Below are positions 1 through 16,632 of a stretch of 16,632 nucleotides of DNA, one piece after another; positions within the stretch are counted from its first letter, which is position 1; the number at the start of each line of letters is the position of its first letter. The DNA lies in assembly GCA_016711405.1 (NCBI GenBank), contig JADJSZ010000094.1, positions 1 to 16,632 on the forward strand, in the 5' to 3' direction. The position numbers and the translations under genes were made by a program. The notes under the pieces were generated by a model. That model did not search any database. It saw only the letters and a program-made list of their open reading frames with translations, and was not told the origin of the DNA. This stretch comes from Candidatus Hadersleviella danica. GTDB taxonomy: Bacteria > Chloroflexota > Anaerolineae > Promineifilales > Promineifilaceae.

Positions 1-138
1 CGTGCTATCCCATGACTTGCCCATAAATCCAAGTTCATAGGGTGGGTCGCAAACAATCGAATCAAAGTGATTGTCAGGGTATTTTTTTAGCACTTCGCGG
101 TTGTCCCCGTGGTGCAATGTGTAGCGGCTATTTTCCAT
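1..138 (-). CDS. DNA methyltransferase (N6-adenine/N4-cytosine, beta-class), N-terminal 46 codons only; the gene continues past the left edge
   Basis: The reverse complement of 1-138 translates to MENSRYTLHHGDNREVLKKYPDNHFDSIVCDPPYELGFMGKSWDST. This contains the catalytic motif IV 'DPPY' preceded by the hydrophobic run 'SIVC', the typical N-terminus of amino-MTases with the D12-class / beta domain order. The ATG is the complement of 136-138, with an AAGGAA Shine-Dalgarno 8 nt upstream. The six-frame track does not list it because it is under 60 aa inside the window. Confidence 0.75.
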   Translation of the reverse strand, partial: MENSRYTLHHGDNREVLKKYPDNHFDSIVCDPPYELGFMGKSWDST

Positions 139-164
139 GAGCAATTCCTTTGTGAGTGTGGGGG

Positions 165-356
165 TTATTCGACACCCATCTTGGCAAACATGCCGTGCCC
201 GACTGCTATCTCTGCACCGCTCTTGGGGCAGTCGAAAAGCAGGCGGCGCAATTCTTTCACCGTCATTTCTTGGTCGGAGATGTGAAAGAGAATTTGGCGC
301 AGTTCGTCGGCCGTGATGGTGGCAACTTCTTGGGTTTGGGGGTTGATTGTGGACAT
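165..356 (-). CDS. hypothetical 63-aa protein, immediately upstream of and co-oriented with the methyltransferase gene (probable two-gene operon)
   Basis: ATG with a GAGG Shine-Dalgarno ('gcgaggtatcATG' on the minus strand). Its stop lies 26 nt before the MTase ATG. A + strand ORF (156..428) overlaps it, but the minus-strand ORF has the better start context and fits the operon layout. No recognisable domain. Confidence 0.4.
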   Translation of the reverse strand: MSTINPQTQEVATITADELRQILFHISDQEMTVKELRRLLFDCPKSGAEIAVGHGMFAKMGVE

Positions 357-375
357 GATACCTCGCTTGCTGATA

Positions 376-391
376 CTGAACTTTCTGAACT
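376..391. repeat. CTGAACT-tt-CTGAACT direct repeat (9-bp phasing). Further copies at 472-478, 4976-4982 (opposite strand), 5230-5236/5239-5245 and 5337-5343
   Basis: Read directly from the sequence. All copies lie in the two non-coding regions and overlap the predicted -35 or spacer elements. Confidence 0.5.
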
Positions 392-461
392 ATCTAATCA
401 TACCAAAACGTTACATACAGGGCAATAGGCACGGCCGTTTTGCCCCAAATTGGTTTAGTAT

Positions 462-490
462 TTTACAAATCCTGAACTATTCTATACAAT
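462..490 (+). promoter_or_regulatory. putative sigma70-type promoter for the packaging operon (-35 TTTACA 462-467, 17-nt spacer, -10 TACAAT 485-490)
   Basis: Hexamers found by eye in the AT-rich divergent region. The spacer contains a CTGAACT copy (472-478). Confidence 0.3.
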
Positions 491-540
491 AAAAAGCGGT
501 AGACGGAAAAAATGAGGCAGAATCCAGTTACAGGGGCGGT

Positions 541-1254
541 GTGTTGGGTCACATCGCCCCACTTCCTATGCCACGGCCGACCTTTTTAGGCGGCCGTTTC
601 TTTTCCCCACACCCTATGGCAGATGCAGGGCGACCCCCCACCATAACCGATGACAGAATACTCAAGCGACTGCTTGAGGCGTTTGAGTGGGGCATGAACC
701 AAAAGGACGCGGCAAGGTACGCGGGCATTGCGCCCCAAACGCTATCGGCCGCGTTACGGCGCGGCCGTGAAGCGGACGAAGAAATGGCCGAGGGCGGGGC
801 GCGGGCTGGCAAAAAGCCGCTTACCAAAGATTGGCCATATGTGAGTTTTTACAGGCGGGTGGGGGAGGCGCGGTCAGTGATGGCGGCGCAAGCGGGGAAA
901 GCGGCCGTGAAACTGCTCAAGGGCGGCCGTAAGGTGACTGAGGTCACAACCGAGATTTACAGCATCATGGAAGCGGGGGAGGGCAAAGAACCCGTATTCG
1001 TGAAAGTAAAAGAGACGCGGGAAAGGCGGGTAGAAGAGTTACCCCCCGATTCGGCCATGACCCGCTTTGTCTTACAGCACAATTGGGGCAAGAGCGACGG
1101 CGCAAGCACGGCCGAAAGCGAGGGCGAGGGCGACACCATCAGCCCCGAACAGGCCGAGCAAGCCATGCAGAAACGGGCGGTGCAAGCGTTCGACGCTTTG
1201 CACTTGTTTGACGGCCTTGTGGAAGGGCAAGGGGAGGATGATACCTATGAGTAG
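541..1254 (+). CDS. terminase small subunit (putative). The start is uncertain: GTG at 541 with an AGGGG Shine-Dalgarno, or ATG at 616
   Basis: N-terminal HTH-like segment 'DDRILKRLLEAFEWGMNQKDAARYAGIAPQTLSAALRRG'. Acidic C-terminus. Its stop overlaps the start of the large terminase (ATGAGTAG). Position is immediately upstream of terL. Confidence 0.55.
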   Translation: MLGHIAPLPMPRPTFLGGRFFSPHPMADAGRPPTITDDRILKRLLEAFEWGMNQKDAARYAGIAPQTLSAALRRGREADEEMAEGGARAGKKPLTKDWPYVSFYRRVGEARSVMAAQAGKAAVKLLKGGRKVTEVTTEIYSIMEAGEGKEPVFVKVKETRERRVEELPPDSAMTRFVLQHNWGKSDGASTAESEGEGDTISPEQAEQAMQKRAVQAFDALHLFDGLVEGQGEDDTYE

Positions 1255-2702
1255 CCAACCACGAACCCCCACCAAACGCTTCCTGTTTCTGACCCAGCAC
1301 CTTGACTTGCCCCGCGCTTCGGGCGTTGACGATGCCCAATGGGAGCATTTTCAAGTGGCTCATTTGTGCGACGATGGGCAGTTCAGGATAGAGGACAAGA
1401 GCCGCCAAATTGCGTGGTCTTTTCTGGTGGCAATGGAAGCCACGGCCGAGGCCATTCTGGAAGGGCAAAGCTCCGTTTTCGTCTCTATCAATCTCGAGGA
1501 GGCCAGCGAAAAAATACGCTATGCCAAATCAGTTTTAGAGAACATCCAAAACTACAGGCTCCCCCAAATCATCCGCGACAACACTTTCGGCCTCGAGTTT
1601 GACAACGGGGCGCGGATTATGTCCCTGCCCTCGAGGGAGCCACGCGGCAAGGCGCGGATGAATGTCTACCTTGACGAGTTTTGTCACATCATGCGGGATA
1701 GGGCGATTTACTCAGCGGCCTTACCCATGATAAGCAAGGGCGGCCGTTTGCGGATTGGTTCAAGCCTGATGGGAGCGAGTGGGCAACATTGGGAAGTCAG
1801 CCAACAACGGTTACGGCCGTATCCGGGCTACACCCGCTCCGTAACCCCGTGGTGGAAAGTCAAGGCGTTTTCCAACGACGTGCGGACGGCTTACCAGCTT
1901 GCGCCCGAACATGCCCACGGCCGAGCGGGTGGAACGATTCGGCAACCAGCGCATTCGGGCAATTCACGACAACATGCACAGCGAAGATTTTCAACGCGAG
2001 TATGAATGTGTGTACGTGGACGAAACCAGCGCATGGTTCCCTTGGGAGGAGATTCAAGCCATTCAACAGCCCTCCCTCTACACGATTACGGCCGATACAC
2101 GGGGCGAAGCGGTGAGCAAGGCCATGAACGCCATAGCTGAGTTGAAAGCGGCCGTGACGCGGGGCGTGGTGGAAACGGCAATGGCCGTGGGCATAGACGT
2201 AGGGCGCACCCGCAACGCCACTGAAATCTTTGTGGTTGGTTGCACCACAACCGATACCTACCCCTTGCGCCTGACCCTCACCCTTGAAAATGCCAGTTTC
2301 GACACCCAGCTTGCGGTAGCGGCGGCCGTGTTCGACACCTTGCCCATTAAGAAAGGGTACATAGACCAGAACGGTATCGGCCGTAACCTTGCCGAGCGGC
2401 TCGAGAAACGCTTCCCCAGCAAGGTTGAGGGCGTGGATTTTACGGTGCAATCTAAAACGGTTTGGGCGACTGATGCAAAAATGCTTGCCCAACAACTCAA
2501 GGCCATTATCCCCGCTAACAGGGACTTGGCTTACCAGATTCATTCAATTAAGCGCACGATAACGGGCGCGAAAAACATGGTTTTCGACACCGACCGCACC
2601 GAAAAGCACCATGCCGATAAGTTTTGGGCATGGGCGTTGGCTCTTTCGGCCGCACGGGTCAAGGTCATGGTTCCTCGAGAATTTTCTAATCCAAGGCGGT
2701 GA
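1247..2702 (+). CDS. terminase large subunit (lambda gpA / Terminase_6-like), interrupted by an apparent +1 frameshift between about 1845 and 1905. Segment 1247..2005 is in frame 2 and 1845..2702 in frame 0
   Basis: The N-terminal half has the deviant P-loop 'DKSRQIAWS' (compare lambda gpA KSARVGYS) and a Walker B 'MNVYLDEF'. The C-terminal half has 'FQREYECVYVDE' and nuclease-domain acidic motifs 'AVGIDVGRT', 'GYIDQNGIG' and 'HHADKFWAWA'. The two halves are in different frames; frame 0 opens at 1845, directly after a TAA, at a CCCC run. The combined length is about 485 aa. SD GGAGG lies upstream of ATG 1247. Confidence 0.8.
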
Positions 2703-2706
2703 CAAG

Positions 2707-4144
2707 ATGATTGAAATTACAAAAGAGATGGATAAGCGGCTGATGGGCATGATAATGGGCGAAGTGGCCAATTACATGCAATCGGTTGCGCCCACTTTGA
2801 GCCAACGGCCGAAACTGGCCGCCATGCAATCCATTGGTGGCTACACGGGCGGGGCGATAAACCGCACAACGCACGGCGGCGATAGGGAGATTGATACCGT
2901 GCTGGGGCGCACAGCAACCGATTCGGCCACGTTTGATGTGTTTATGACGTGGTTCAAGCGCGACCCCGTGGCCAATGCCATGATTAGCAAGCCCGTATCG
3001 GCCACATGGCGACGGCCGCCCCAAATTACCGACGGGGATGCAAACGATACCCCGTTTTGCAAAGGCTGGAAGCAATTGGTCAAGCAAAAGAAGATTTGGA
3101 CAACGTTCCCCCGCCTTGACCGCCTCGCCATGTTGGGCAAGTACGCGGTTTTGCTCATTGGCTTTTCAGATGTCAAGAGCGACGCGGATTTAGCCACGGC
3201 CGTTAAGGAAAAGCAATTCAAGCGCGGTTTGGACGATGTCTACTTTTTGCGGCCGTATGGCGAAGACCAGATTAAGAAGATAACGAACAATGTTGACCCT
3301 TCCAGCCGTCGCTATGGCTTGCCCGAAACCTACACCCTCGTTGAAAGCATTGTCGTTTCCAGTGACGCGGCTCCTACCACCAAAGAGATAGATGTGCATT
3401 GGAGCCGTATCATTCACGCGGCCGATAGCACCATGCAAAGCGGCCTTGGAGGGGATTCCCTTTCTCTTGCCCGTCTTAGATGACCTCGAGGATTTGGCCA
3501 AGACCATTGGCGGCGCGGCTGAATCGGTTTGGCGGGCGAGTGGGCAAGATATTGTCATGGCCATGAATGAGGGCTATGAGTTCCCCACCGAAGCCGCCCG
3601 CGAAGATTTTACCGAGCAATTGCGCGACCGTGTCAATCAGCTTGTGCGGTCAATTATCACTACAGGCGGCAATCCCCAAATCGTTCACGCCACGGCCGTT
3701 GACCCGACGGGCATTGTGACCGCCATTTACAAGCGGCTTTCGGGCTACAGTGCCATCCCCTTGCGTATTCTGTTAGGGAGCGAGGCGGGGCGGCTGGCCA
3801 GTGACCAAGACGAAGGGAATTGGGCGGCGCACATTGCGGCGCGGCAAGTGGAGTATGCGGAGGATAGTATCTTGCGGCCGTTCATTGACCAGATGGTTTA
3901 CACGGGGGTATTGCCCGCGCCTGAGAGCGACGAAGGCTACGACGTGGGCACGTATGACCCCAAACACGACGCATGGATTTGGCCGAGCATTGAAGAAGCC
4001 AATGAAATGGAAAAAGCCGAAATTGCGGACAAGCGGGCGAGTGCCATGCAGAAAGCGGCCGATGTCGCGGCCGTCAACGGTTCCTTGGATGACAACGACG
4101 TGCGCGGCTTTGGCGGCTTGCCCCCCCGCGAAGATGAGGCGTAA
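2707..4144 (+). CDS. portal protein (probable; DUF1073 / HI1409-like by gestalt and position), interrupted by an apparent +1 frameshift near 3449-3453 (GGGG). Segment 2707..3483 is in frame 1 and 3392..4144 in frame 2
   Basis: It sits directly downstream of terL (stop 2702, ATG 2707 with a GGTGA Shine-Dalgarno). The two consecutive ORFs together give about 479 aa. The C-terminal part 'SAIPLRILLGSEAGRLASDQDEGNW...ILRPFIDQ' and 'GIPFLLPVLDDLEDLAKTIGGAAE' resembles portal C-terminal regions. The assignment rests on gene order and motifs, not on a search. Confidence 0.6.
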
Positions 4145-4147
4145 CCC

Positions 4148-4897
4148 ATGCCCACGCCTGACCTCTCATTCACCCCGCCCAACGACGGCGAAATAGCGGC
4201 CGATGTGCGCCAATCGTTTGCCCGTGTGGAAACGATTGGCCGCGTCATGGCTCTATGGGGCAAGTACGCCTCGTTGAAAGACTTGCCCCGCTATCCGCTC
4301 GACCCGCAAACGGGGCAATTCGTGCAACCAAACGGCCGCTTGCTCCCCTTTGCCGTGGTTCGTGCCAATGTGCAACGGCTGGCCAATGGCGTAGGGCGGG
4401 GCGAATTGGGGGAGATGACCAAGCGGCTCCAAAAGGGCAACGTGCCCCTTGCCGAGTGGTACAGCACCATGCGCGATACCAGCCGTGACGCTTATTTAGC
4501 GGCCGTGCTGGTTGCCTTGGGCGGGATTAGCCGACTGACCGCCACAACGCCCCAAGCGTGGGAGGGGGTGTACCAGCTTGCCGAGTTTCAAGAGCGCAAG
4601 CTCAGGGATATGGCCGTGGATTTGCAACGGGATTGGGAGGGGAAAAACACGGCCGCTTACAGCCGGGCAATCATGTACGGCGCGGCCGTGTATGGCGTGT
4701 TTGGCAACAGCAACCGCTTCTTAATGGACATTTTGGGCTTTAACCAAGAGCGGCGGGTGTTGGCTCCAGCCGAGCATTGTACCGATTGTGTGGGCTATGC
4801 CAGCGTGGGCTGGCGGCCGATAAATTCACTCCCCCCCATTGGCGATAGCAAGTGCCTATCCTATTGCCATTGCAGTTTTAGATTTAGGCGGGTGTAA
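4148..4897 (+). CDS. head morphogenesis protein, phage Mu F / SPP1 gp7 family (minor capsid protein)
   Basis: Position after the portal. C-terminal signature 'EHCTDCVGYASVGW...PPIGDSKCLSYCHCSF' matches the C-x2-C ... PP ... C-x3-C-x-C motif of Mu-F-like proteins. 'LAEWYSTMRD' lies in the core. Confidence 0.7.
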   Translation: MPTPDLSFTPPNDGEIAADVRQSFARVETIGRVMALWGKYASLKDLPRYPLDPQTGQFVQPNGRLLPFAVVRANVQRLANGVGRGELGEMTKRLQKGNVPLAEWYSTMRDTSRDAYLAAVLVALGGISRLTATTPQAWEGVYQLAEFQERKLRDMAVDLQRDWEGKNTAAYSRAIMYGAAVYGVFGNSNRFLMDILGFNQERRVLAPAEHCTDCVGYASVGWRPINSLPPIGDSKCLSYCHCSFRFRRV

Positions 4898-4917
4898 CTG
4901 GCCAGACTACGCCCGCC
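4887..4917 (+). terminator. hairpin overlapping the gp7 stop codon (stem GGCGGGTGTA / TACGCCCGCC, 11-nt loop), not followed by a U-tract. It may be a weak terminator or an RNA-stability element
   Basis: Inverted repeat read from the sequence. The missing T-run is why confidence is low. Confidence 0.2.
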
Positions 4918-5228
4918 TCCCATATATAGATTGTTCCCCTGCTTGTTGCCGTTGTCACCTCCTTTTGCAGTGAAGTACAGTTCAGATTGTAGCACAAAAT
5001 AAACCAGTCTATGTCTATCAACCACTTAAACCCCCTGACCGCCTCCGATATTTTCAAGCGTGTAACCAATGCCGATAGCGGCCGTGCCTACATGGTGCAA
5101 GCTGACGTATGTGGTCATTGATGGGCAAATCATGGTGCAAACCGTCGCCCCCCACCGCTTCGAGATGAAACAAGGGGTAAGCATGTACGCCGTGTTGGGC
5201 GAGCTGACCGACGCGCTAAATCCTGCTC

Positions 5229-5258
5229 TTGAACTTTCTGAACCGACTGCGGTATAAT
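5229..5258 (+). promoter_or_regulatory. putative promoter P1 (-35 TTGAAC 5229-5234, 18-nt spacer, -10 TATAAT 5253-5258)
   Basis: Near-consensus hexamers. The -35 element and spacer are themselves built from a TTGAACT-tt-CTGAACC direct repeat. Confidence 0.35.
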
Positions 5259-5280
5259 CTTTTTTCAGTCTCCTCTCTGC

Positions 5281-5328
5281 GGCCGTTGGTTAGTGACCCA
5301 AAACTAGCCAACGGCCTATTTTTTTTGG
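5281..5328 (+). terminator. rho-independent terminator T1 (13-bp stem 5281-5293 / 5304-5316, 10-nt loop, then TATTTTTTTTTT)
   Basis: GGCCGTTGGTTAG ... CTAGCCAACGGCC is perfectly complementary apart from one G-U pair, followed by a 10-T run. It lies only about 20 nt downstream of the P1 -10 element. Confidence 0.7.
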
Positions 5329-5345
5329 CTATTTTTCTGAACTTC

Positions 5346-5374
5346 TTGACCTGTTTTTGATTTTCGTTTACACT
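5346..5374 (+). promoter_or_regulatory. putative promoter P2 (-35 TTGACC 5346-5351, 17-nt spacer, -10 TACACT 5369-5374), with a CTGAACT copy abutting the -35 element
   Basis: Hexamers and spacing read from the sequence. The predicted transcription start is about 5381. Confidence 0.35.
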
Positions 5375-5458
5375 ACTATGCGATAGGCAAATTGTTTGCC
5401 ACCAATCGAATAACACCAATTCCCGTTAGGCCGTGAATCGGCCGTCTACCACCCAAAA

Positions 5459-5502
5459 GGCGGGCACACAACCAAAAAGTGTTGTGTGCCCGCCTTTTTT
5501 TT
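5459..5502 (+). terminator. rho-independent terminator T2 (perfect 14-bp stem GGCGGGCACACAAC / GTTGTGTGCCCGCC, 8-nt loop, 8 Ts), ending 11 nt before the ATG of the scaffold gene
   Basis: Perfect inverted repeat plus TTTTTTTT, read directly from the sequence. Confidence 0.8.
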
Positions 5503-5512
5503 GTTTCCACCT

Positions 5513-6709
5513 ATGGAACCCGAACAAACAGGCGAATCCACAACCCCAGAGCAAGAGCAAACGGCCACCGAAACCCATGCGGCCGTCGCCCTTGCCGCGC
5601 CCGTCATGGTTAACCATGCCCTGCAAATCAACCGCGCCGCCATCCGCTACGAAGCGTTCAATGGCGACAACTTCATGGTTGCCCCGTTCGTGGGCGCGGT
5701 CGAAGGGGTAATGAACGGGGCACTGATTTTGGCCAGCGAGTTAGAGCAGAGCGCACCGCTCTACCCCGATAGCCCTGTTGTTGTAGGCCATCCCACGGTA
5801 AACGGTGCGCCTATCAGTGCCAAGGGTCAGCCCATCCCCAAAATCGGCCGGGTCTACAACACGGCCGTGGATGGTGACAGGTTGACGGGCGAGTTATGGG
5901 TGAGCCAACGCGCCGCCCAATCTGCCCCCCGTGGCCAAGAGGTACTAGACAACCTCGCTACGGGCAAGGTCAACGAAGTGAGTTGGGGCTGGTGGATGCA
6001 AGCCGAGCCAGCCCAAGGGGAGTTTAAGGGCAAGCCCTACGCCGTCATCGGCCGCAATTTTATCCCCGACCACTTAGCCATTTTGTTAGATGTGCCCGGC
6101 GCGTGTTCTGTAGCCGACGGCTGTGGAACGCTCCGAGCTAATCAAGCCCTGACCGTCAACTGCGATTGCGGTTGCTCTGGGCATGTCGTCAATCCCAATC
6201 CATCAATCACAGGAGAAAAAACTATGACGGGTAACACCCAAGTAGACGCTCCCATTGAAGAGGACGAGGTTGTTGACGCTGTGGAAACGAGTGGGGCGCA
6301 AATCCCCGCCCCGACTGCCCCAGCGCAACCCGATTCCGCTTCTTTGGAAGTGAACCAAGTGCAAGCGGTGAAAGCCGAGCTTGCCAAACTGGCTGATTCG
6401 TTTGCCAAAACAAATCAGTTGGTTGCCAACCAGAACAAGCTCATTGAAGAGCTGTTAGGCGAACGGAAAACCCAAAAGCAACAGGCGCGTGAAGCGCAAA
6501 TTGCTGAACTGGCCACCTACGCCAATCAGCCGTTCAGCGTGGCCACGTTGAAAACTTTCAGCGACGAAGCCCTTGCTGAACTCGAGGGCAAGTTCCGCCC
6601 CGCTTACATGGCGGGCATGGGCATGAGCATCAACGGCCGCACCACGACCGCTGACCCCAACATGGGCTATGCGCCCGCCGCGCCCTATCTCTTTGGGGAG
6701 GTGAAGTAA
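5513..6709 (+). CDS. putative scaffolding / prohead-protease-like protein (DUF2213-like gestalt)
   Basis: Acidic Pro/Glu/Thr-rich N-terminus. A central domain ('VSWGWWMQAE', 'FIPDHLAILLD'). A Cys cluster 'CSVADGCGTLRANQALTVNCDCGCSGH'. A low-complexity Pro/Ala linker. A C-terminal coiled-coil-like Ala/Glu/Lys/Gln region typical of scaffolds. It lies just upstream of the capsid gene. There is no Shine-Dalgarno; the start codon follows T2. Confidence 0.5.
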   Translation: MEPEQTGESTTPEQEQTATETHAAVALAAPVMVNHALQINRAAIRYEAFNGDNFMVAPFVGAVEGVMNGALILASELEQSAPLYPDSPVVVGHPTVNGAPISAKGQPIPKIGRVYNTAVDGDRLTGELWVSQRAAQSAPRGQEVLDNLATGKVNEVSWGWWMQAEPAQGEFKGKPYAVIGRNFIPDHLAILLDVPGACSVADGCGTLRANQALTVNCDCGCSGHVVNPNPSITGEKTMTGNTQVDAPIEEDEVVDAVETSGAQIPAPTAPAQPDSASLEVNQVQAVKAELAKLADSFAKTNQLVANQNKLIEELLGERKTQKQQAREAQIAELATYANQPFSVATLKTFSDEALAELEGKFRPAYMAGMGMSINGRTTTADPNMGYAPAAPYLFGEVK

Positions 6710-7144
6710 ATGACTACCACAACGGGTAATCCCTACACCATTTTCCTGACAGGCCGCGACCGCACCGTTTTTGACGAAGTGGCCGTGACCGATGCCGTGG
6801 TTAAGCCCGGCATGTTCTTGGCTCGCACAGCCACAGGCGCACGGCCGCAAAACGTAGCCGCCGCCGCCGCTCCCTCGCTGGTTGCCACCGAAGCCACCGT
6901 ATTCGAGGGCACGATTGAAACCGAATTAGCCGTGGGCGAACGGGTTCAGTTTGGCAACGCCTCGGGTTGTCACGTCTACGCCATCTTGCTTTCGGGCGAG
7001 AACGTGGCCGCTGGTGCGAAGTTGACCCACGACGGCACGGGCAAATTGGCCGCCCTCGGGGTTGACGAAGTTTGGATTGCGACCGCCTTAGAAGCGGTAG
7101 ACGCAAGCGCGGCGGATAAACGAATCCGCGTGGAGGTGCTGTAA
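6710..7144 (+). CDS. small head-associated protein (possibly a decoration or auxiliary capsid protein), 144 aa
   Basis: GGAGGTG Shine-Dalgarno. The start overlaps the upstream stop (TAAATG). It lies between the scaffold and the major capsid gene. Function is inferred from position only. Confidence 0.45.
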   Translation: MTTTTGNPYTIFLTGRDRTVFDEVAVTDAVVKPGMFLARTATGARPQNVAAAAAPSLVATEATVFEGTIETELAVGERVQFGNASGCHVYAILLSGENVAAGAKLTHDGTGKLAALGVDEVWIATALEAVDASAADKRIRVEVL

Positions 7145-7146
7145 CC

Positions 7147-8136
7147 ATGAACGCTGAATTTGCAACCATTGAACTGGTGTCCCAATTGGACATCAACAAA
7201 ATGCGCCCCATCGCTGGCTTCCATGCCAACGCGCTTTTGCGGCAAGACGATTGGCGCACGATTGACGACGCGGTCGTGAAAGTCGCTCGCCAAAACCTGA
7301 GTGTTTTGGATGACCTCGCCCGTTTCGGCCTTGTACGGCCGCCCGCTGGTTTGGGGCTGATGTTCAGTTCCTACGAACAACAAAGCGAACTGACCACGGC
7401 CAACGTGGACATGGCGGCCGACACCCGCGCCGAAATGTCCAACCTCAACCACACGACCATCAACATTCCTGTGCCCATCATCCACAAAGAGTTTTCTCTG
7501 AACGCTCGGGTGCTGATGAATAGCCGCATGAACCGCATGGAAGGGTTGGACGTTAGCCACGCCGAAAGCTCTGCCCGGCGCGTGGCCGAAGCCATCGAGG
7601 ACATGATTATCAACGGCGTTTCGTTGACCGTGAACGGTTCCACCATTCAGGGCTTGACCAACGCTACCAATCGTGTCACCGACACCGCTACCAACTTTGG
7701 CGGCGGGGCGTGGAGTACGGCGGGGAACGCCTACAAAACCATCAACGGCATGATTGCTGGCATTGAAAACAAAGGTTTCTATGGCCCTTATGGGGTCTAC
7801 GTGGCCAACAACTTGTGGAGCAAGCTCCGCAATCTGATTAGCACCGAATCGGGCAAGTCTGAAATGGCCGCCCTCATGGAAAACCTTGGTTTGGCCACAG
7901 GCGGGCAAGTCGCCTACGTCAAGCCCTCCCGCTCCCTTGCCGCTGGCACGGCCGTCTTGTTCCAACTCACCAGTGATGTCATTGACATTGCCACGGGCGT
8001 TGGCATGACCACCGTCCAATGGGAAGAGCAAGGCCGCTTGACCAGCAATTTCCGCGTCATGGCGGCGATGGCGCCTCGTGTCAAGTACGACGCTTCCAGC
8101 AATTGCGGTGTGGCTCATGCCACAGGTGCGCTCTAA
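7147..8136 (+). CDS. major capsid protein (HK97-fold, DUF2184 / encapsulin-like type, inferred)
   Basis: 329 aa. Strong GGAGGTG Shine-Dalgarno. It lies immediately after the scaffold and small head protein. The composition and length are typical of this MCP class. The long antisense ORF 6976..8118 covering it is low-complexity and rejected. Confidence 0.7.
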   Translation: MNAEFATIELVSQLDINKMRPIAGFHANALLRQDDWRTIDDAVVKVARQNLSVLDDLARFGLVRPPAGLGLMFSSYEQQSELTTANVDMAADTRAEMSNLNHTTINIPVPIIHKEFSLNARVLMNSRMNRMEGLDVSHAESSARRVAEAIEDMIINGVSLTVNGSTIQGLTNATNRVTDTATNFGGGAWSTAGNAYKTINGMIAGIENKGFYGPYGVYVANNLWSKLRNLISTESGKSEMAALMENLGLATGGQVAYVKPSRSLAAGTAVLFQLTSDVIDIATGVGMTTVQWEEQGRLTSNFRVMAAMAPRVKYDASSNCGVAHATGAL

Positions 8137-8147
8137 GGGGGTGACGT

Positions 8148-8480: not shown

Positions 8481-8857
8481 TGGCACTCCCCACCGCCTAC
8501 ACCGAAGCCACGTTCAAGGCTTATCTCTTCTCCCAAATAGCAGGGCTAAACCTGACTTGGACGGTAGACGGCGGTGATTTTGATGAAATCGTTATCTCGG
8601 TTGGGCTTTACCTCTCAGCCGAGATAGCCGATGTCACCAACATTAAGTTGCTCCGGGCAGTCGGGCGGCGCGAACTCTGGTTAGCCGTCATGCAAGCGAG
8701 TGGCAACAAGGCCACGGCCGCCACGGGTGTAGCGGGCAGTATCACATTCGGCAAAAACATTTTTGACCGTGCCCAAGACTTGTACAACAAGGCGACGGCA
8801 GAGGTTGAATTACTCGAGGGCGAGGTCACTAAAACCCCGTCTCTCTGGGCTGGTTAG
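8480..8857 (+). CDS. putative head-tail connector / head completion protein
   Basis: Start overlaps the upstream stop (TAATG) with a GAGG Shine-Dalgarno. 125 aa. Position is between the capsid and tail genes. Confidence 0.45.
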   Translation: MALPTAYTEATFKAYLFSQIAGLNLTWTVDGGDFDEIVISVGLYLSAEIADVTNIKLLRAVGRRELWLAVMQASGNKATAATGVAGSITFGKNIFDRAQDLYNKATAEVELLEGEVTKTPSLWAG

Positions 8858-8861
8858 GGCA

Positions 8862-9272
8862 ATGCTCGACTTCGACATTGAACTCAAGGGCTTTTCCAAA
8901 ACGACGTTGCGCTGGCAAAAGACGCTTGCCCAACGTGCCGCCATCGCCCAAGAGGAGTTGAACAAGTTCGGGGAAGCGGCCGTGCAAAAACTGGCGGGCG
9001 AGGCTTACCCCGCCCAACTGCCCAATCAGAAATACGTCCGCACTTTCTTGTTACGCAACCGCTTTCAATGGAAAGCACGGCCGTTGCAGAAAGCCGGGCG
9101 GATTCTGCTCAGTAACACCGCCCCGCGCCGTCGCTTTGCGATTGGGAAGAAATCGCAAGCGCGAATCCATCAGGGCAGATGGTGGACGATGCAAGACAAA
9201 GTCGTGGGCTACACCCCCGCTCTTCACAGGGCGTTGTTAGCGGCCTACATGGAACGGCTGACAAATGGATAA
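8862..9272 (+). CDS. hypothetical neck / head-tail joining protein (start uncertain; the track ORF begins upstream at 8763 in the same frame)
   Basis: The frame is open from 8763 to 9272, but the first ~100 nt overlap the preceding gene. ATG 8862 is the first ATG after that gene's stop. Confidence 0.45.
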   Translation: MLDFDIELKGFSKTTLRWQKTLAQRAAIAQEELNKFGEAAVQKLAGEAYPAQLPNQKYVRTFLLRNRFQWKARPLQKAGRILLSNTAPRRRFAIGKKSQARIHQGRWWTMQDKVVGYTPALHRALLAAYMERLTNG

Positions 9273-9741
9273 AGAAGCCGCCTTAATCGCCCTCCGCAAT
9301 ATGATTCGCGCCGCTGGCACGGCTCCCTTGTCCAACTTGGGGCAACGGGTGTGGGTTCAGTCAGAGGATTACACCTCTGTTTCCATCGCCACTTACCCCT
9401 TTTGCCTTGTGAACTATGCCATTGGCGAGGATTTTCCCGTGCGGAAAGCGGCCTTGAACGGCCGTTACACCTACGAATGGCTTGCCCAAGTCTACTTTGC
9501 CGTTGGCTCGGCCGATGTGGGCTATCCCAGCTCCGCCTTTGCCGCCGCACAACAAGCCAGCAAAGCATACCCACGGGCGTTGTTAAGCCTTTTGGCGGCC
9601 GATACGACCAAGTGGGCGGGCACGATTCACGCGCTCGGCAACACAAATTACTACTTACGCGACAACTTCACAATTTGGGAATGGGACGGCAATGTACTGC
9701 TCGGCCAAATGGTTGAGATACCCGTCACCCAATTCTTTTAG
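9265..9741 (+). CDS. hypothetical tail completion / neck protein
   Basis: The ATG overlaps the upstream stop (ATGGATAA). 158 aa. It directly precedes the major tail gene. Confidence 0.5.
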   Translation: MDKEAALIALRNMIRAAGTAPLSNLGQRVWVQSEDYTSVSIATYPFCLVNYAIGEDFPVRKAALNGRYTYEWLAQVYFAVGSADVGYPSSAFAAAQQASKAYPRALLSLLAADTTKWAGTIHALGNTNYYLRDNFTIWEWDGNVLLGQMVEIPVTQFF

Positions 9742-9753
9742 GAGAAAAACAAC

Positions 9754-10230
9754 ATGGCTATCTCAGGAACCTTAGCGGCCGAAGATGCAATGAACATGTC
9801 CAATGCCGTTTTCGGCGTTGACTTAGGCTCGACAGGCACATTTGCGGCCGTTTCCACATGGACAACCAACGTCGCCACGACAGGCGGGGAAGCTCCCACG
9901 GCCGAAATGATGCGGCTGGCGGGCGACCCCATCGTGAGCGTGGGGCGCAAAGGGGCGCGGACTGTAACCATCACCGCCATTTATGACAACGCGGCCACGG
10001 GCGTTTTCCAAAACGTCTACGCCGCCCACGAAGCGGCCACAGCAGGGCGCAAGTGCGATGTGCAATGGACGGCCTTTGGCGCGACGGCGGGCGACCCCCG
10101 TTTCACGACCGTTAACGGCTTGCTCACCAGTTGCACCTTGCCCGACTTGAACGCCTCCGAAGCGAACCCATCCACGTTCCAGTTCGTGATTTTCGCCTCG
10201 GCCGTTGAACTCGACGACGTGCCCGCCTAA
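9754..10230 (+). CDS. major tail (tube) protein, siphovirus type (inferred)
   Basis: Strong AGGAGA Shine-Dalgarno. 158 aa, Thr/Ala/Gly-rich. It lies immediately upstream of the G/G-T chaperone pair and the tape measure gene. Confidence 0.55.
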   Translation: MAISGTLAAEDAMNMSNAVFGVDLGSTGTFAAVSTWTTNVATTGGEAPTAEMMRLAGDPIVSVGRKGARTVTITAIYDNAATGVFQNVYAAHEAATAGRKCDVQWTAFGATAGDPRFTTVNGLLTSCTLPDLNASEANPSTFQFVIFASAVELDDVPA

Positions 10231-10267
10231 CCCGAATCACCATTCACCCTAGAGGACGACTAAGACA

Positions 10268-10630
10268 ATGACAACCGAAACCGAAACCAACGATTTTGTG
10301 ATTGAAGTAACCGTGGGCGGCATGACTGGCACTGTAGCCTTGCCCGACCCCGAAGAGTTTACGGGGCGCATGTACGATGACTTTATGGCCTTGAACAAGA
10401 AACACAGCAAGGGCGGCACGTCGCAATTGCGGGTCATGTTCTACACGGCCGTGGAGTTCATCAAAAAGTACGGCGGCTGGAACGTGGTTAGTGCTGATGG
10501 GATTCCCGTCAGCATTGACACCGCGCTCGGCTGGAAAAACTCCCCCAGCGCCGAACCGTTTAAGTTTGTCACTTTCTTAGGGCGGCAAACCGACGCTTAC
10601 TTCGTGAGCATTTTCGACCCAAAAAAGTAA
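10268..10630 (+). CDS. tail assembly chaperone G (gpG-like)
   Basis: 120 aa. It ends ...FDPKK* with its last codons forming the slippery heptamer A_AAA_AAG. It lies between the major tail and tape measure genes. Confidence 0.7.
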   Translation: MTTETETNDFVIEVTVGGMTGTVALPDPEEFTGRMYDDFMALNKKHSKGGTSQLRVMFYTAVEFIKKYGGWNVVSADGIPVSIDTALGWKNSPSAEPFKFVTFLGRQTDAYFVSIFDPKK

Positions 10631-10926
10631 TCTGGCAGGTATGGCGCAAGGTATCCCACGGCAAAGGTTCAATGCCCTTCCCTTGGGATACCGCCCGCCT
10701 CTGCCTGAATATGCAGAACGGGGAAGTAATCCACTTCCCCGCTGGCACATACAACAAGCAGGTTGCTACCGAACACGGCCGTCAGCAATTGGAACTAATG
10801 GAACTGACCTACCAAGCGCACCGTGTTTTTGTCGAAATGGGGCAACCAAACAAACAATCTGACAAGACCGCGCTCGAGTTTCTAAAAATCGCTCGAGAAG
10901 TCGAGAAAACCCGTCAACATGGCTAA
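10268..10926 (+). CDS. tail assembly chaperone G-T fusion, made by a -1 programmed ribosomal frameshift at 10621-10627 (join 10268..10627, 10627..10926)
   Basis: The -1 frame (frame 1) is open from the slippery site through track ORF 10672..10926 with no stop (KVIWQVWRKVSHGKGSMPFPWDT...). Its stop overlaps the tape-measure ATG at 10919. This layout is conserved in long-tailed phages. Confidence 0.65.
10621..10627 (+). promoter_or_regulatory. -1 programmed ribosomal frameshift slippery heptamer A_AAA_AAG (dnaX type)
   Basis: In the zero frame, cc[a aaa aag] taa. Read directly from the sequence. Confidence 0.7.
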
Positions 10927-13900
10927 CGAAAAAGACACCTTAGAGATAGAAGTCAAGGCCACGTTGCAAGGCGACGCGGCGTTCAAGTCTATTCTGAGTG
11001 ACCTTGAGAAAATCCGCAAAGAAGCGGATAAGGTCAAGCAATCGGCCGCTGGCATTGGCGGGGCGAGTGGGAGCATTAAGAGCGCGGCCACGGCCTTGGG
11101 CGAGGTTGAATCAGCCGCAAAAAAGGCGGGCAAGGGCGTAGGGGAAGCCGAAAAATCCACCGAATCAGCAGGTAGCGCGTTTACCAAAATGAGTGGGCTG
11201 GCCACGGCCGCATGGGCGGCGGCGGGCGCGGCCGTGACTGCGTTCGTGGTTGATTCGGTCTCCCAATTCATGGCCTTTGAGAAGGGCATGGCCGAAGTCT
11301 TTACCCTGTTGCCGGGCATATCAGGCGCGGCAATGGACGCAATGACGGCCGATGTGCGCGCCTTTGCCCTTGAATCGGGGCGACTGCCTGACGAAGTTGT
11401 GCCCGCCCTCTACCAAGCTATCAGCGCGGGCGTTCCCCAAGCCAACGTATTTGACTTTATGAAAGTGGCCAGCGACGCGGCTTTAGGCGGCGTGACTGAC
11501 CTCGAAACGGCCGTGGACGGTATCACGTCGGTGGTCAATGCGTATGGTTCAGAGGTAGTTAGCGCACAACAGGCCAGTGACATCATGTTCACGGCCGTTA
11601 AGCTGGGCAAAACCGACTTTAGCCAATTATCCGCCTCCCTCTTTAATGTCATCCCCACGGCCGCCGCCTTGGGCGTTTCGTTTGAGGACGTAGCGGCGGG
11701 GTTAGCGGCCGTGACTGCTCAGGGCACACCTACCAGCGTCGCCACAACCCAAATGCGGCAACTGTTTGTGGAACTGAGTAAGGAAGGGGGAAACACCAGC
11801 CGCATCTTTAAGGAAATAGCGGGCGTAGGCTTTAAGGAATTTTTAGCGCAAGGCAACAGTCTACAGGACGGCTTGCAACTCCTTGAAGAGTACGCCGCCA
11901 AAACCAACGTTGGTATCAACGACCTCTTTGGTTCGGTGGAGGCGGGCAGTATCGCCCTTGGTTTGACAGGGCAAGGGACTGAGAAATTCACGGCGGCCGT
12001 GCAAGAGTTTGGCAACGTGACGGGCGCAACAGGGCGGGCGGCCGATTTGATGGGCGAAACCACGGCGCAATCAATGGCGCGGGCAAGCGCGGCCGTCAAC
12101 GAACTCAAATTGATGTTGGGCGAATCACTCGCCCCTGCTTTGGCACAAACGGCCGAAGCTGTGTTAAGCCTTGCCAACATCGCCCTCCCTTGGCTGGCAA
12201 GCAACTTGAACAAGTGACCGTTGACAGGCGCGTTTGCCGACGGCATGAGCATCATAGCGGGTGAAAGCGAAGCTGTGGAGCGAACCGTAGCAGGTGTGGC
12301 CAATGTGGTAGGCGACAACGCGCTTTCGGCCGCTGAAAAGATGGCGCAATTGGACGCGGCCATTAGCAACGCGGGCACGGGCGGCCGTGTGTTTGGCCAC
12401 GCTGAAGAGATTGAAGCGGGCATGGTGCAGGTGGCTAAGGCCGTTGTCACGGGTGCAACCTCTTACGAAGATGCAATTGCCCGCATGAAAGAAGCGGGAT
12501 TCGAGATGGACGCGGAGGGCATGAGCTTTACCAGCCCTCACGAATGGGAAGCGTTTCAAGCGGCATGGGCACAAGTGGAGCAGGGCGCGGTCTTTTCGGC
12601 CTCCCAAGTCATGTCCCGCCTTGTGGACGTGAGCGGGGCGTATGCCCACACGGGCAAAGAAGCCGATGACGCGGCCGTGTTTATCACCGACTTGACCGAG
12701 GAGTTGGAAAAGAACGGCCGTGCTTACGAACAAGCGACTGAGGCCACGGCCGCCAATGAGCAGGTCAACGAACGCATTGCCAAGGTCAATGAAGCCGCGT
12801 TAAGCACCAGCGAAGCCAAAAACCAATTACTGAAAGAGGAAGCCCTAAGCGCGGGCAAAACGGCCGAATCCATTGCCGAATACGAAGCGGCAACCAAAGC
12901 GGCTTTGGCCGCTACACAGGCGTTTGTGCGGGATTCGACAGGCGCGTTTAACAAGTCGGGCAACATCTTTGGCGACGCTTTCCAAGAGCTTGAAAAGGCC
13001 GAAAACGCGCAAATCAATCTGAACGCGGGCACGGTATGGGCGTACAACCAAGCCTCTAAAGAAATAACCGAAATCAGCGGCCAATTAGCGGCCGATTTGA
13101 GCGAAGACCAGCAAAAAGCGTTCCAAGAAATCTTGGGCACGGTAGAGGAAGGGTCAGCCGAATGGCTGAGCGCCTACAACGCTTTGCAAGGCGATTTAAG
13201 CGACAGTGCCCGGCAGGGTCTTGTGGCGCAAATGGCTGAATTGCAAGGGGAGGCAGGCGAGTTAGCGGGCGGCGGGTTAGAAGCGGTGTACGGGGCTGAC
13301 ACACGGGCGGCCGAAGAAGCCCGCGCCGCCATCGAGGAAGCCAATCAAGCCATCATTGCCAGTTACAAGGCGACCACGTTTGAGGCGTTGCTGGCTCAAA
13401 CGGGCGTGACCGAAAGCACGTTAGCTTTCGGGCGTTCAATTGGGCATTATGACCGAGGCAGAGGCGGCGGCGCGGCTCGAGTTTACCAATACCACCCTCG
13501 CCCTGACCACGCTGGCCAGCTCGCAAGAATTTGCGGCCGCTTCCACCCGTGACCAAGCGGAGGCCGCGCAACTGCTTATTTTGGGCTACGCCTCTTCAGC
13601 GGAGGAAGCGGCCACAATGGCGGCCTCCATATCCGACAAGGGCGGCTTATCCGAATCCCTGTTAGCGGCCACAAGCCAAACCGAACAACTGAATCTTGAA
13701 TTAGCCAAGCTCGAGGGCGACAAAGAAAGCAAGGTCAGCGTGAGCGTGGACGGCATTGAATCGTTGCGCGAAGCCGTAGGGCTGACCCAGCAAATGGCGG
13801 GCGGCGGGCGCAAAGACGGCGCGGCCACGGCCGCTTTGCCCGAAGCCCGTGCCGTGGGCGGGGACATCAGCGCGGGCAGTCCCCTACATGGTAGGGGAGC

Positions 13901-14160
13901 AAGGCGCGGAACTGATTTTCCCCAGCAAGAGCGGCTTCGTGGCCACGGCCGCGCAAACCCGCCAATTGCTGAACGAAGCCAAACAAGCCCAAGCGCAAAT
14001 GGCCATGAGTAACAGCTATGCGACAAATACGGCCAACCTGAGCATGACCAACAACATCTATGCGGGCAACCAACCCGCCCAAGATATTGCCAGCACGATT
14101 GACCGACGCGGCCAACAAACCGCCCGCAAAATGGCGCGGCTCATGGGGCAAAAAATCTAA
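10919..14160 (+). CDS. tail tape measure protein (TP901-type core), about 1080 aa if continuous. As written it is split four ways: 10919..12217 ends at an in-frame TGA; 12218..~13430 (frame 2); a +1 shift near 13426-13432 to frame 0; a +1 shift near 13881-13884 (CCCC) to frame 1; end at 14160
   Basis: The first segment carries the TP901-family tape-measure core ('DIMFTAVKLGKTDFSQLSASLFNVIPTAAALGVSFEDVAAGLAAVTAQG'). The middle is Ala/Glu/Gln-rich and helical. The last segment carries the conserved TMP C-terminal motif 'VPYMVGEQGAELIFPSKSGFV'. Segments 1 and 2 share a frame and are separated only by 'aag TGA ccg TTG'. Confidence 0.8.
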
Positions 14161-14585
14161 TGATACCTACCTCATTCTCTGCCCTGACCGTCACGGCCTT
14201 AAACAACGGCACAACCACCTTTGCGGTGGATATGGGCTATGACCACTTGCCAATGGAAAACCGCCTTGTCGAAACCATTGCGGGGGTTTACGACACCAGA
14301 GGAACCCAAACCAGCCGCCGCAAGCCGGGGGTGCGACAAGTGCGCTACATCTTTGAGGGCGCAACGGCCGCTGATTTGCATAGCCACATCAATACCCTTG
14401 AATTTACCGACAAGGGCAAGAAAGGGACATTGACCCTGACCCGCGTGGGCGGCGCAACCACCTACACCTGCACGGCCGCGCTCACCAACATTGCCGTGGC
14501 TTTCCTGAGTGAAGATAACCCCGATGAAACAGCGGCCGTTATCACTCTCTTTTTGGCCGAATTAACAGCCCTTGCCCAAGCGTAA
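14160..14585 (+). CDS. small tail protein directly after the tape measure (possibly distal tail protein-like), 141 aa
   Basis: Its ATG overlaps the TMP stop (TAATG). Function is inferred from position only. Confidence 0.4.
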   Translation: MIPTSFSALTVTALNNGTTTFAVDMGYDHLPMENRLVETIAGVYDTRGTQTSRRKPGVRQVRYIFEGATAADLHSHINTLEFTDKGKKGTLTLTRVGGATTYTCTAALTNIAVAFLSEDNPDETAAVITLFLAELTALAQA

Positions 14586-14594
14586 CCAACACTT

Positions 14595-16632
14595 ATGACC
14601 ACCAACGGCGTAGTAGTGCAAGCGGATAGCGTCCGCGTTGATTTTAAGGCAACCCCCACGGGCGACGTATTGGCCACGACCACGGCCGTCTACAACCCCA
14701 GTGGAACCCAACGCCTGAGCATGGCGGGCGATTGGTCTTTTACGATGCCGCTGGCCGCTTATGACCCTGACACGATGGGCACGGGTAAATACGCCTTTGG
14801 CTTTGCCGCCTTCCCCAGCGTGACCAATTACCCGCTGTTTGCGGGGCGCATAGAAGAGGGGGATGACGACCTAAACCCAGATATTCACACGGTCACGATT
14901 AGCGGCATGGATATGTTGGGGGAACTGACCAAAAAAGAGATAGCCCACGCCGAAATTTGGGCAATTGCAACCGAAATACCAGTGTCGGTGTTGGGCGAAC
15001 GCTGGTACGCCTACGAAAACGAAACGGTTATCCCCAAGCCAGAGGCCAATGATGGCGATACAGGAACCGAGGCGGGCTTTATTTTGATTCGGTCGTTAAC
15101 GATTCCCCGACCCCAACAACCCCCGACCTTCCCCGAAGAGGCGGCGGCCGAAGAGGATAGGCTGATTCAGCACGTCAAGTTTATCTATTTTGGGCACAGT
15201 GCCCCGTTTTGGCGGATTGACCTAAACATCGCGACCGACATTGTGCAATCGGTTGCCTCGACCATTTTTATAGAGTTGTTCAACGCAGAGGGGCAATGGG
15301 AATCCCGCGCCATTGACACCAATACAACCATCGTGGCGGGCAAGCCATTTGCCCAAAGCGGGTACATTGAATGGGCAAAGGCTGAATTAGAACACCCCAT
15401 ACGTCACGACGGCATTACTCAGTATTGGGGGCGGATTGGGGTAAGCGGCGCGGCGTTGTCGCTGTTCAAAATCAAAGAAACCACCGTGCGCACAATGGGG
15501 CCACTGGCAACCGATGTGGAAACGTTGGTGGATGATTACGCCCCTGCAGGATGGTCTTTGGCCTCGGGCAGTGAAACGGGCACGGCCGACGGCGGCCGTC
15601 AAATCTACATTGCTGGCCAAACAGCGTTAGCCGCCCTTGTTGACCTCGCCAAACGCACGGGGGAGATGTTCGCCCTCATTGGCACGAACCAAATCAAGTG
15701 GTTGGCCTCGCCCATTTCCAGCGGCATAACGGCCAAAGAAGCCCCCGAGGGCGGCGACACAAGCACCTCTGTCTACATTAGCCGCTTGAATCGCACCCGT
15801 AGCCGCCGTGACATTATCACCCGCGCCTACTTGCGCGGCGGCGGCAATGACCCCGTGGCACAGGTAACGCTTTCGCCCTTGGACGGGCTGGACGTGTCGG
15901 CCTATTTGGGCGCGGATTACGCCGTGAGTGGCGACTGGTTAATCAACACGGCCTTAGAGGCGACATTAGCCACCGAACTGCCTAAAACCGTCAACTTCCC
16001 CAACATCGTAGCCGTTGGCGGCGGCACGGGGCGCAATCGCCAAAACGCGCTTGAGTTGTTGCGCTTCGGGCGTGGCCTTTTTGGAACGCAACAAAGACGA
16101 GGCGCGGCATTACACGGCCGATATTGTTGGCTTGCGCTCTTCCTCAGTGCATCCGGGCATGACCATGAACGTCGTGGCCAACATTTATGACGCGGACGGG
16201 GGAGTGACCGAGGCCATAGACGAAGATTTAGTCATTGTCGAAATGACCCAAAGCATGGGCAATGACGGCATTTTGTCATGGCGGATGGTCTTTGGAACCA
16301 TTGCCGAGCATGTGCCCACGGCCGCATTAGCAGAAGCGGGGCAAATTGCCCTAAACCAACAGAAAATGAACACCCCCCAAGCGGGCAGTAGCAACTTTGC
16401 CGTGGGCGGTTTGGCTGTGGGTAGTTCATCGGGCACGGGAGGCGGGGGAGGCGGCGGCACGGCCGAGCTTGACGCGCACATGGCCGAAACCTTCACGGCG
16501 CATCAGATACCGCTCCAAATTGACAACAAAATTGCGACCCATGCGGCGTTGACCACCACGGCGCACGGCATCCCCAGCCAGATTGATACCAAGATTGCGG
16601 CACATAGTGCTATTGAAGATGCGCACCATGAC
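14595..16632 (+). CDS. tail tip / tail fibre protein, continuing beyond the right edge. It has an apparent +1 frameshift at the TTTTT run 16078-16082: frame 0 up to that point, then frame 1 to the window end
   Basis: The frame-0 ORF 14595..16190 ends in junk (...TQQRRGAALHGRYCWLALF...). The +1 frame from about 16081 reads as good protein ('LERNKDEARHYTADIVGLRSSSVHPGMTMNVVANIYDADGGVTEAIDEDLVIVEM...') and is open to position 16632. It ends in a poly-Gly tract and tandem ~21-aa repeats 'TAHQIPLQIDNKIATHAALTT / TAHGIPSQIDTKIAAHSAIED'. Confidence 0.6.

Follow-up and report, generated by a model that had tools for sequence, protein, structure and literature searches.

Why does a single six-letter palindrome, CGGCCG, crowd a piece of phage DNA from which nearly all other short palindromes have been removed? 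The question is raised by contig JADJSZ010000094.1, a stretch of 16,632 bp (56.7% G+C) that was analyzed at its full length and is called the window below; its gene content (terminase, portal, HK97-like capsid, tape-measure) identifies it as the part of a siphovirus that serves packaging, head and tail, and close relatives of this phage come from activated sludge. CGGCCG occurs 92 times in the window (5.5 per kb), against 8.7 copies expected from base composition. The excess is real and specific, it is common to the phage and to a putative host clade, and the sites are retained above background. We consider it likely that CGGCCG is the core of ACGGCCGT, an iterated palindrome of sludge Chloroflexota of the type of the cyanobacterial highly iterated palindromes (HIPs), and that the phage keeps it under selection as a mark of host 'self'.

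An exact word count placed the 92 copies at positions 308, 432, 574, 591, 746, 762, 902, 924, 1109, 1443, 1741, 1814, 1918, 2089, 2149, 2323, 2378, 2647, 2806, 3013, 3197, 3250, 3419, 3693, 3875, 4056, 4068, 4197, 4333, 4500, 4650, 4683, 4814, 5079, 5280, 5439, 5580, 5845, 5862, 6049, 6634, 6842, 7336, 7415, 7949, 8242, 8389, 8715, 8977, 9078, 9459, 9509, 9596, 9776, 9845, 9899, 10199, 10446, 10776, 11043, 11205, 11229, 11346, 11508, 11592, 11658, 11706, 11994, 12039, 12090, 12150, 12327, 12382, 12672, 12715, 12747, 12861, 13089, 13308, 13534, 13828, 13946, 14365, 14473, 14533, 14683, 15145, 15583, 15593, 16115, 16319 and 16460. A preliminary description of this DNA had put the excess at roughly tenfold, which the count bears out (10.6-fold over composition). 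It had also listed seven copies in the first 1 kb: the seven coordinates are exact, and the true number is eight, position 308 having been missed. With both strands counted (184 observed), the observed/expected (O/E) ratio was 10.6 at Markov order 0, 7.2 at order 1, 4.7 at order 2 and 3.45 at order 3. A count no higher than the Markov expectation, the outcome that the preliminary description had named as speaking against its own claim, was therefore not obtained. At order 4 the ratio was 1.2, under a model that is made of the 5-mers of CGGCCG itself. The word ranked first among all hexamers by z-score (z = 31), and the next-ranked words all overlap it.

Abundant codons for alanine, threonine, glycine and arginine could spell CGGCCG without any further cause; GCC is a common alanine codon, and two thirds of the coding sites do read xCG GCC Gxx. 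The coding sites are unevenly distributed over the three frames (56, 17 and 11), but all three are occupied, and non-coding DNA, with six sites in 1.4 kb, has a density similar to that of the coding DNA, which holds about 90% of the total. The codon contexts quoted earlier for the word were all found: Ala-Ala-Val 16 times, Thr-Ala-Glu 6, Arg-Pro 11 and His-Gly-Arg 2. When proteins and global codon usage were held fixed in a synonymous shuffle, 23.9 ± 4.0 copies were expected in coding DNA against the 84 observed (z≈15, about 3.5-fold), and shuffling of codon order within genes gave 15.8 ± 3.8. These results refute codon usage or amino-acid composition as the source of the excess, to which we give hardly any credit, and they uphold the earlier statements that the excess does not depend on codon usage and that the word stands in every frame and in the spacers.

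Immediately outside the word, at -1/+1, the window has A/T at 48% of copies, G/C at 32%, T/A at 20% and C/G almost never. The form RCGGCCGY is matched by 57 of the 92 copies (O/E 26) and the full octamer ACGGCCGT by 15 (O/E 37). Beyond ±1 the flanks in the phage hold at most 0.08 bit, so the word is free-standing and no longer repeat surrounds it. That CGGCCG might be a piece of a longer dispersed repeat, or of an element resembling the repetitive extragenic palindromic (REP) sequences or the miniature inverted-repeat transposable elements (MITEs), could be suspected from nine pairs of copies lying within 38 nt of each other and from one site situated in a hairpin. Unlike such elements, the sites show no conservation of their flanks (in the host loci described below, too, these hold at most 0.18 bit), and they lie mostly within genes and in all frames; this explanation is refuted, and among those weighed here it has the least credibility.

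The spacing of the sites is more regular than that of randomly placed ones, with a coefficient of variation (cv) of 0.72 against 0.98 ± 0.10 (P≈0.001), and the widest gap measures 585 bp.

The other short palindromes have been purged from the window. Zero copies were found for 46 of the 64 hexamer palindromes, and all hexamer palindromes except CGGCCG, TGGCCA and CTCGAG together reached 39 copies against 255 expected. Observed and expected counts were 0 and 63 for GATC, 3 and 63 for CTAG, and 12 and 108 for CCGG; CCWGG, GCWGC, GGWCC, GASTC, GWGCWC and GRGCYC were absent, and GRCGYC and GGYRCC had one copy each. GGCC was present almost solely as YGGCCR, an EaeI/CfrI-type site (150 copies), and RGGCCY occurred 0 times with 27 expected. 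The palindromes kept or enriched despite the purge were TGGCCA (24 copies, 4.8-fold), CTCGAG (12 copies, 2.4-fold), CAATTG (12 copies, 4.1-fold) and TTGCAA (8 copies). CTCGAG had a z of 5.2 against the synonymous null, and in the host loci its O/E was 0.17, without enrichment. Some non-palindromic hexamers were over-represented in the window as well: GGGCAA/TTGCCC with 62 copies on both strands (2.9-fold), and AAGCGG/CCGCTT and AGCGGC/GCCGCT at about 3.2-fold, the latter group overlapping GCGGCCG in part.

The purge is restriction-site avoidance. The Chloroflexota host loci show no depletion of GATC, CCGG, CCWGG and GCWGC (O/E 0.77-2.1), words that are near zero in the phage, the classic pattern in which a host protects its own sites and its virus must avoid them. 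The window thus fits the restriction-site avoidance of phages in an extreme form, but CGGCCG is enriched and conserved, and so, more weakly, are TGGCCA, CAATTG and TTGCAA; avoidance therefore cannot account for CGGCCG.

The purge could still produce the excess passively, if a ban on GC-rich words (CCGG, GGNCC, GCWGC, CCWGG and most hexamer palindromes) funneled G+C into the permitted CGGCCG, and its extreme extent speaks for such an effect. In a Markov-chain simulation of synonymous swaps, in which proteins and codon usage were kept and 179 depleted words were forbidden from rising, the 84 coding copies relaxed to 35 ± 5; without forbidden words about 23 were left. Forbidding these words thus lifts the simulated count, but to a value far short of 84, so that avoidance accounts for a small part of the excess. 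In addition, five contigs (L025, L021, L108, L336 and L349) share an equal CGGCCG excess with GATC, CCGG, CCWGG and GCWGC unpurged, and the host loci show it with mild avoidance. A passive by-product of the purge is therefore largely refuted and very improbable.

Three of these contigs, L025, L021 and L108 from IMG/VR, have CGGCCG at 10-12-fold and no palindrome purge, and their abundant word is the octamer ACGGCCGT, which some IMG/VR contigs carry at 66-150-fold. L025 holds 49 copies of the octamer in 13 kb, about 150-fold, in an otherwise host-like word profile. This contig (positions 1-13185 of the 100-kb IMGVR_UViG_3300033417_000002) encodes ParA, an FtsK/SpoIIIE-family protein, an SLT transglycosylase and a P22-type antirepressor, a gene content suggestive of a plasmid, an integrative and conjugative element or a prophage; plasmid and phage database searches with L025 gave no useful host clue.

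To search for hosts, 185,579 species genomes (one per GTDB species) were scanned with a probe of three ACGGCCGT copies within 31-nt gaps. Among the matches listed, Chloroflexota were recurrent, beside a noise of high-GC actinomycetes: the Ardenticatenaceae metagenome-assembled genomes (MAGs) HK-STAS-CHLO-25, -32 and -38, Candidatus Leptovillus affinis (isolate label AalE_BATAC.251), one Candidatus Promineifilaceae MAG, 'uncultured Chloroflexi CFX4' and several Anaerolineae MAGs. Three copies of ACGGCCGT made a specific probe; when a less strict one, of three sites with W flanks, was used on IMG/VR, about 95% of the matches listed were noise.

Statistics were taken from 187 kb of matched Chloroflexota loci after the clusters that had triggered the match were masked. 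In these loci CGGCCG occurred at 2.8 per kb (O/E 6.4) and ACGGCCGT at 1.7 per kb (1,740 per Mb; O/E 80), and the density of CGGCCG in the phage is about twice that of these loci. One-off variants of the octamer concentrated at positions 1 and 8: on both strands the consensus was counted 650 times, each position-1 variant 19-44 times and internal variants 0-15 times. The sites were distributed over the frames as 297, 164 and 76, with 72 in non-coding DNA, in proportion.

Phage and host loci agree beyond this one word. The O/E values of the hexamer palindromes in the phage correlated with those of the Chloroflexota loci (Spearman 0.47, or 0.43 without CGGCCG), compared with 0.02 for actinomycete loci. 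The palindromes kept by the phage (CGGCCG, CAATTG, TGGCCA, TTGCAA and AACGTT) rank at the top in the Chloroflexota loci; RGGCCY, GRGCYC, GWGCWC, GASTC, GGWCC and CTAG are avoided in both, and YGGCCR is enriched in both. With motif-derived 4-mers excluded, the 24 loci closest to the window in 4-mer composition were Chloroflexota or unnamed high-motif loci, with a mean r of 0.55 against 0.09 for the others. The contig L001, a relative of the window, was obtained from a pilot plant for nutrient removal with activated sludge (PMC10949500), and isolate labels in the titles of several host MAGs (such as HK-STAS and AalE) seem, in our own reading, to point to sludge or treatment plants. The likely hosts would be filamentous Chloroflexota from activated sludge; the link is compositional, and the exact lineage may lie among unsampled ones. 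A host signature taken on by the phage, one of the options raised in the preliminary description, is the best-fitting one in view of the roughly 80-fold octamer and the matching palindrome fingerprint.

Whether the phage merely received the word or retains it was addressed with its relatives; site conservation was measured in phage genomes. Four contigs from three other samples, L001, L002, L330 and L333, have about 81-92% DNA identity to the window and intact genes. They show the same 10-11-fold CGGCCG excess, the non-structural region included, and the same palindrome purge. Across the window and these relatives, 84% of the CGGCCG sites were fully conserved, while all hexamers reached 63% and other G/C-only hexamers 71%; among 301 frequent words CGGCCG ranked 11th. 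When the window served as outgroup to L001 and L002, the loss per lineage came to 0.05, and that of background hexamers to 0.10. No single-step gain was seen in 110 opportunities, and about three gains had changed several nucleotides at once, all of these being small numbers. Even spacing was also found in L001 and in the more distant L007, and not in L025. Neither codons nor word avoidance explains the excess, and the word is actively maintained: its sites are kept about twice as well as those of ordinary hexamers, and their spacing is more even than chance would have it.

Beyond these four contigs, megablast against cultured phages and a capsid search of genome and IMG/VR contigs found no close relatives of the window, and tblastn with the capsid against cultured phages gave distant matches alone (at most 34% identity, scattered hosts). 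L007 (capsid 46% identical, 47.8% G+C) carries CGGCCG at 19-fold together with the purge, and the distant capsid relatives L004, L005 and L008 have neither, so the trait does not simply track phage ancestry. In L007 (1-13855) the flanks of the word differ (CCCGGCCG / CGGCCGGG) and CCGG is enriched (1.59) and not purged; its word might be an iterated palindrome of variant form, derived from another host lineage. The signature was lacking in L334, the sole long NCBI contig with a portal homolog.

The same observations bear on a neutral explanation, by which a mutation or repair bias of the host, for example very-short-patch repair together with a CGGCCG cytosine-5 methyltransferase, would turn near-matches into CGGCCG in any DNA that resides there, with no function for the phage. 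This would agree with the near-equal O/E of RCGGCCGY in phage (26) and host loci (25) and with the presence of the word in other mobile elements of the same signature, and a repair-based origin of HIP1 has been proposed by Elhai (PMC4390886). However, the one-off words expected from C-to-T changes are not depleted in the window, their order-1 O/E being 1.67 for TGGCCG/CGGCCA, 1.29 for CAGCCG/CGGCTG and 0.90 for CGACCG/CGGTCG, which disfavors the very-short-patch repair idea of the preliminary description. The lack of single-step gains and the halved losses fit retention better than re-creation, within the small numbers noted, the spacing is more even than random, and the conservation of HIP1 itself has been taken as selection and not biased repair (PMC5861425). 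Neutral amelioration is accordingly, in our judgment, unlikely. The Dcm/Vsr bias of Escherichia coli, an excess of CCWGG with a deficit of CTWGG, likewise involves an over-represented palindromic methyltransferase-type site; unlike it, the window lacks the deficit of T-containing derivative words, and the effect on CGGCCG (3.5-10-fold) is much larger.

The DNA uptake sequences (DUS), uptake signal sequences (USS) and Chi sites tag DNA as 'self', either for uptake or for processing of the RecBCD/AddAB type, and likewise occur genome-wide and independently of frame, at roughly one per kb or more. None of these words is a palindrome, and Chi is oriented with respect to the strand, whereas CGGCCG is a perfect palindrome. 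In the window no Neisseria DUS or Pasteurellaceae USS word was present and the E. coli Chi occurred once. HIP1 (GCGATCGC), CGATCG and GATC had 0 copies each, so that the absence of HIP1, DUS and USS reported earlier holds.

The class that remains to be compared is that of the HIPs. In cyanobacteria these comprise HIP1 and the alternates GGGATCCC, TCGATCGA, GGCGCC, rCCGGy and GCsGC (Elhai 2015 PMC4390886; Xu et al. 2018 PMC5861425). Dedicated enzymes methylate HIP1, which is conserved and quasi-periodic; it was reported to enhance transformation in a way that depends on methylation, and a role in uptake was proposed (bioRxiv 10.64898/2026.06.24.733823). By abundance, a member of the class is a short GC-rich palindrome with an 8-mer O/E of at least 15 and roughly 500-2,500 copies per Mb genome-wide. 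CGGCCG reaches 5,500 per Mb at 10.6-fold in the window, and ACGGCCGT 1,740 per Mb at 80-fold in the host loci. As with HIPs, a short GC-rich palindrome is in tens- to hundred-fold excess within and between genes, in all frames and in non-coding DNA, as a free-standing word that is not part of a longer element; its sites are conserved above background (in the phage), its one-off variants lie at the outermost positions (in the host loci), and there are lineage variants, L007 favoring CCCGGCCG. Unlike HIP1, whose word has a GATC/CGATCG core, the word is ACGGCCGT with the core CGGCCG, and unlike HIPs in general it is associated with Chloroflexota and not with Cyanobacteria, is seen in a phage and reaches there a density above the usual range. 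HIPs are distributed with a 10-90 kb periodicity; the window of 16.6 kb reveals local regularity alone (cv 0.72). The earlier proposal of an iterated palindrome like HIP1, as opposed to a codon effect, agrees with this behavior of a genome-wide HIP-type word.

The likely reading, a HIP-type palindrome of sludge Chloroflexota kept by the phage as a host mark, would work as follows. ACGGCCGT, very abundant in the sampled loci of filamentous sludge Chloroflexota of the class Anaerolineae (Ardenticatenaceae/Promineifilaceae, Ca. Leptovillus) and in other viral and mobile contigs with the same signature, would be the full form of the word, relaxed in the phage to RCGGCCGY. By analogy with HIP1, it would be the target of a host cytosine methyltransferase and would serve as a 'self' mark in the handling of host DNA, be it repair, recombination or uptake. 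DNA with the word at regular intervals would then fare better in host cells, and the phage would be selected to retain it. The phage, which has removed nearly all other short palindromes, carries this one in every gene and spacer.

Several points weigh against this reading. No cytosine methyltransferase for CGGCCG was identified in the phage contigs, and what is said of function draws wholly on the analogy with HIP1. The search for a direct link between phage and host turned up neither a CRISPR spacer nor a prophage nor a gene common to both, tblastn of the window proteins against all fetched host loci gave no link, and the capsid homologs are all from metagenomic sources (jgi, Logan, ENA). 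In the 4-mer comparison Chloroflexota reached 0.57 and the four GC-matched controls a mean r of 0.45, a modest advantage that makes this comparison no more than supportive. The flank preference of the phage is looser (A 48%, G 32%, T 20%) than that of the hosts (A 73%). The depletion of CCGG and GATC is unseen in the sampled hosts, and the true host lineage may therefore lie outside them. Finally, the host loci were chosen for holding a motif cluster, and the host clades are those among the matches listed, with further host clades possible.

A bolder version we put forward tentatively, holding it to be possible but rather doubtful: ACGGCCGT would be an undescribed HIP of Chloroflexota, the first found outside Cyanobacteria, and a methylation-linked 'self' mark that viruses mimic, under positive selection, as a passport. 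In the open-access literature, neither CGGCCG nor ACGGCCGT as an abundant or iterated word, nor HIPs in Chloroflexi, were found. Features of this kind are known; new to us are the word ACGGCCGT, the phylum and the phage context, with one palindrome enriched and all others removed.

The preliminary description had drawn attention to a DNA methyltransferase gene at the left edge. The gene is real: positions 138..1 on the minus strand encode the N-terminal 46 codons (MENSRYTLHHGDNREVLKKYPDNHFDSIVCDPPYELGFMGKSWDST) of a predicted beta-class amino-DNA methyltransferase, with a near-identical N-terminus in L330, where the homolog is a 472-aa N6_N4_Mtase gene with DPPY at residue 31 and FAGSGSTG near the C-terminus. 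The suggested link to CGGCCG did not stand. The best solved relatives, CcrM, DpnA and RsrI, are adenine enzymes and CGGCCG contains no adenine, so the enzyme is unlikely to be tied to this word; from its relatives it is probably adenine-specific, although an N4-cytosine specificity may apply, and it is probably not the enzyme acting on CGGCCG. The slot beside the packaging genes is a variable cassette, on the minus strand throughout (window 1-138, L002 1-471, L330 3892-7431, L333 4837-6303). L002 has a different DPPY methyltransferase after about 12 shared N-terminal residues, L330 shares the DPPY enzyme of the window and has a duplicated, split copy in addition (three N6_N4 open reading frames, ORFs), and in L333 the slot is taken by a DUF4942 enzyme whose motif is NPPF. 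Neither a cytosine-5 methyltransferase nor a Vsr turned up in the phage contigs, the enzymes present being of the amino type (DPPY or NPPF). A metagenome scan with the methyltransferase fragment found the family ubiquitous and did not recover the same phage. The adjacency probably belongs to the anti-restriction equipment of the phage, rather than being what causes the word bias.

The other genes identified in the module are on the plus strand. The large terminase (1067..2702; Pfam Terminase_6N and Terminase_6C) is split over two frames (1067-2005 and 1899-2702), with CGGCCG sites in several frames of this copy, and is one gene in L002 and L333. The portal protein (2611..4144) is split in the same way (2611-3483 and 3392-4144), with Phage_portal_3 matches on both pieces, and is one gene of 477-480 aa in L001, L002, L330 and L333. 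The HK97-like major capsid protein (7147..8136; Pfam matches DUF6260/Linocin_M18) was the query for relatives. The tape-measure protein (10919..14012; PhageMin_Tail) occupies at least three ORFs in the window and one 1085-aa gene in L001. Frameshifts or stops break terminase, portal and tape-measure in the window, and each has intact single-gene orthologs in L001, L002, L330 and L333; many indels with a net frameshift were located, for instance near 1911, 2313, 2487, 3449, 4603, 4805, 13429 and 13881. The split genes go back to errors of assembly or sequencing in the source, or else this copy is decaying. A sequencing artefact at modified bases, with frameshifting deletions coinciding with residual palindromes of the relatives, was rejected after a systematic test gave 1-3 matches per relative. 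In L333, a dCTP deaminase/dUTPase-family protein (1924-2517) is encoded upstream of the packaging module and may have to do with nucleotide metabolism or DNA modification.

The intergenic region 5229-5498 holds two promoter-like sites and two strong terminator-like hairpins on the plus strand. The preliminary description had placed CGGCCG within both. The first (5281..5316, a 14-bp stem followed by a T-run) does overlap the copy at 5280 with its 5' arm; for the second (5455..5498, an 18-bp stem followed by a T-run) the closest copy, at 5439, lies 16 nt upstream. The listed ORF 5486-6709 begins with a GTG that the second hairpin overlaps; the true start of this gene is therefore probably further downstream.

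The function of HIP1 has been debated for some thirty years, and the comparative work that we found deals with cyanobacteria alone. An independent HIP with another word in another phylum, shared with its viruses and mobile elements, would, if true, provide a second test system for the competing ideas of methylation-dependent repair, DNA uptake and chromosome organization. In the phage two forces can be told apart within a single genome: nearly all palindromes are strongly selected against, and one is strongly retained. The retention of a single palindrome amid the purge argues that the word is beneficial and not a mere compositional echo. Filamentous Chloroflexota matter for sludge bulking and few of these hosts are cultured; the octamer ACGGCCGT would be a cheap marker for assigning uncultured wastewater viruses and plasmids to them.

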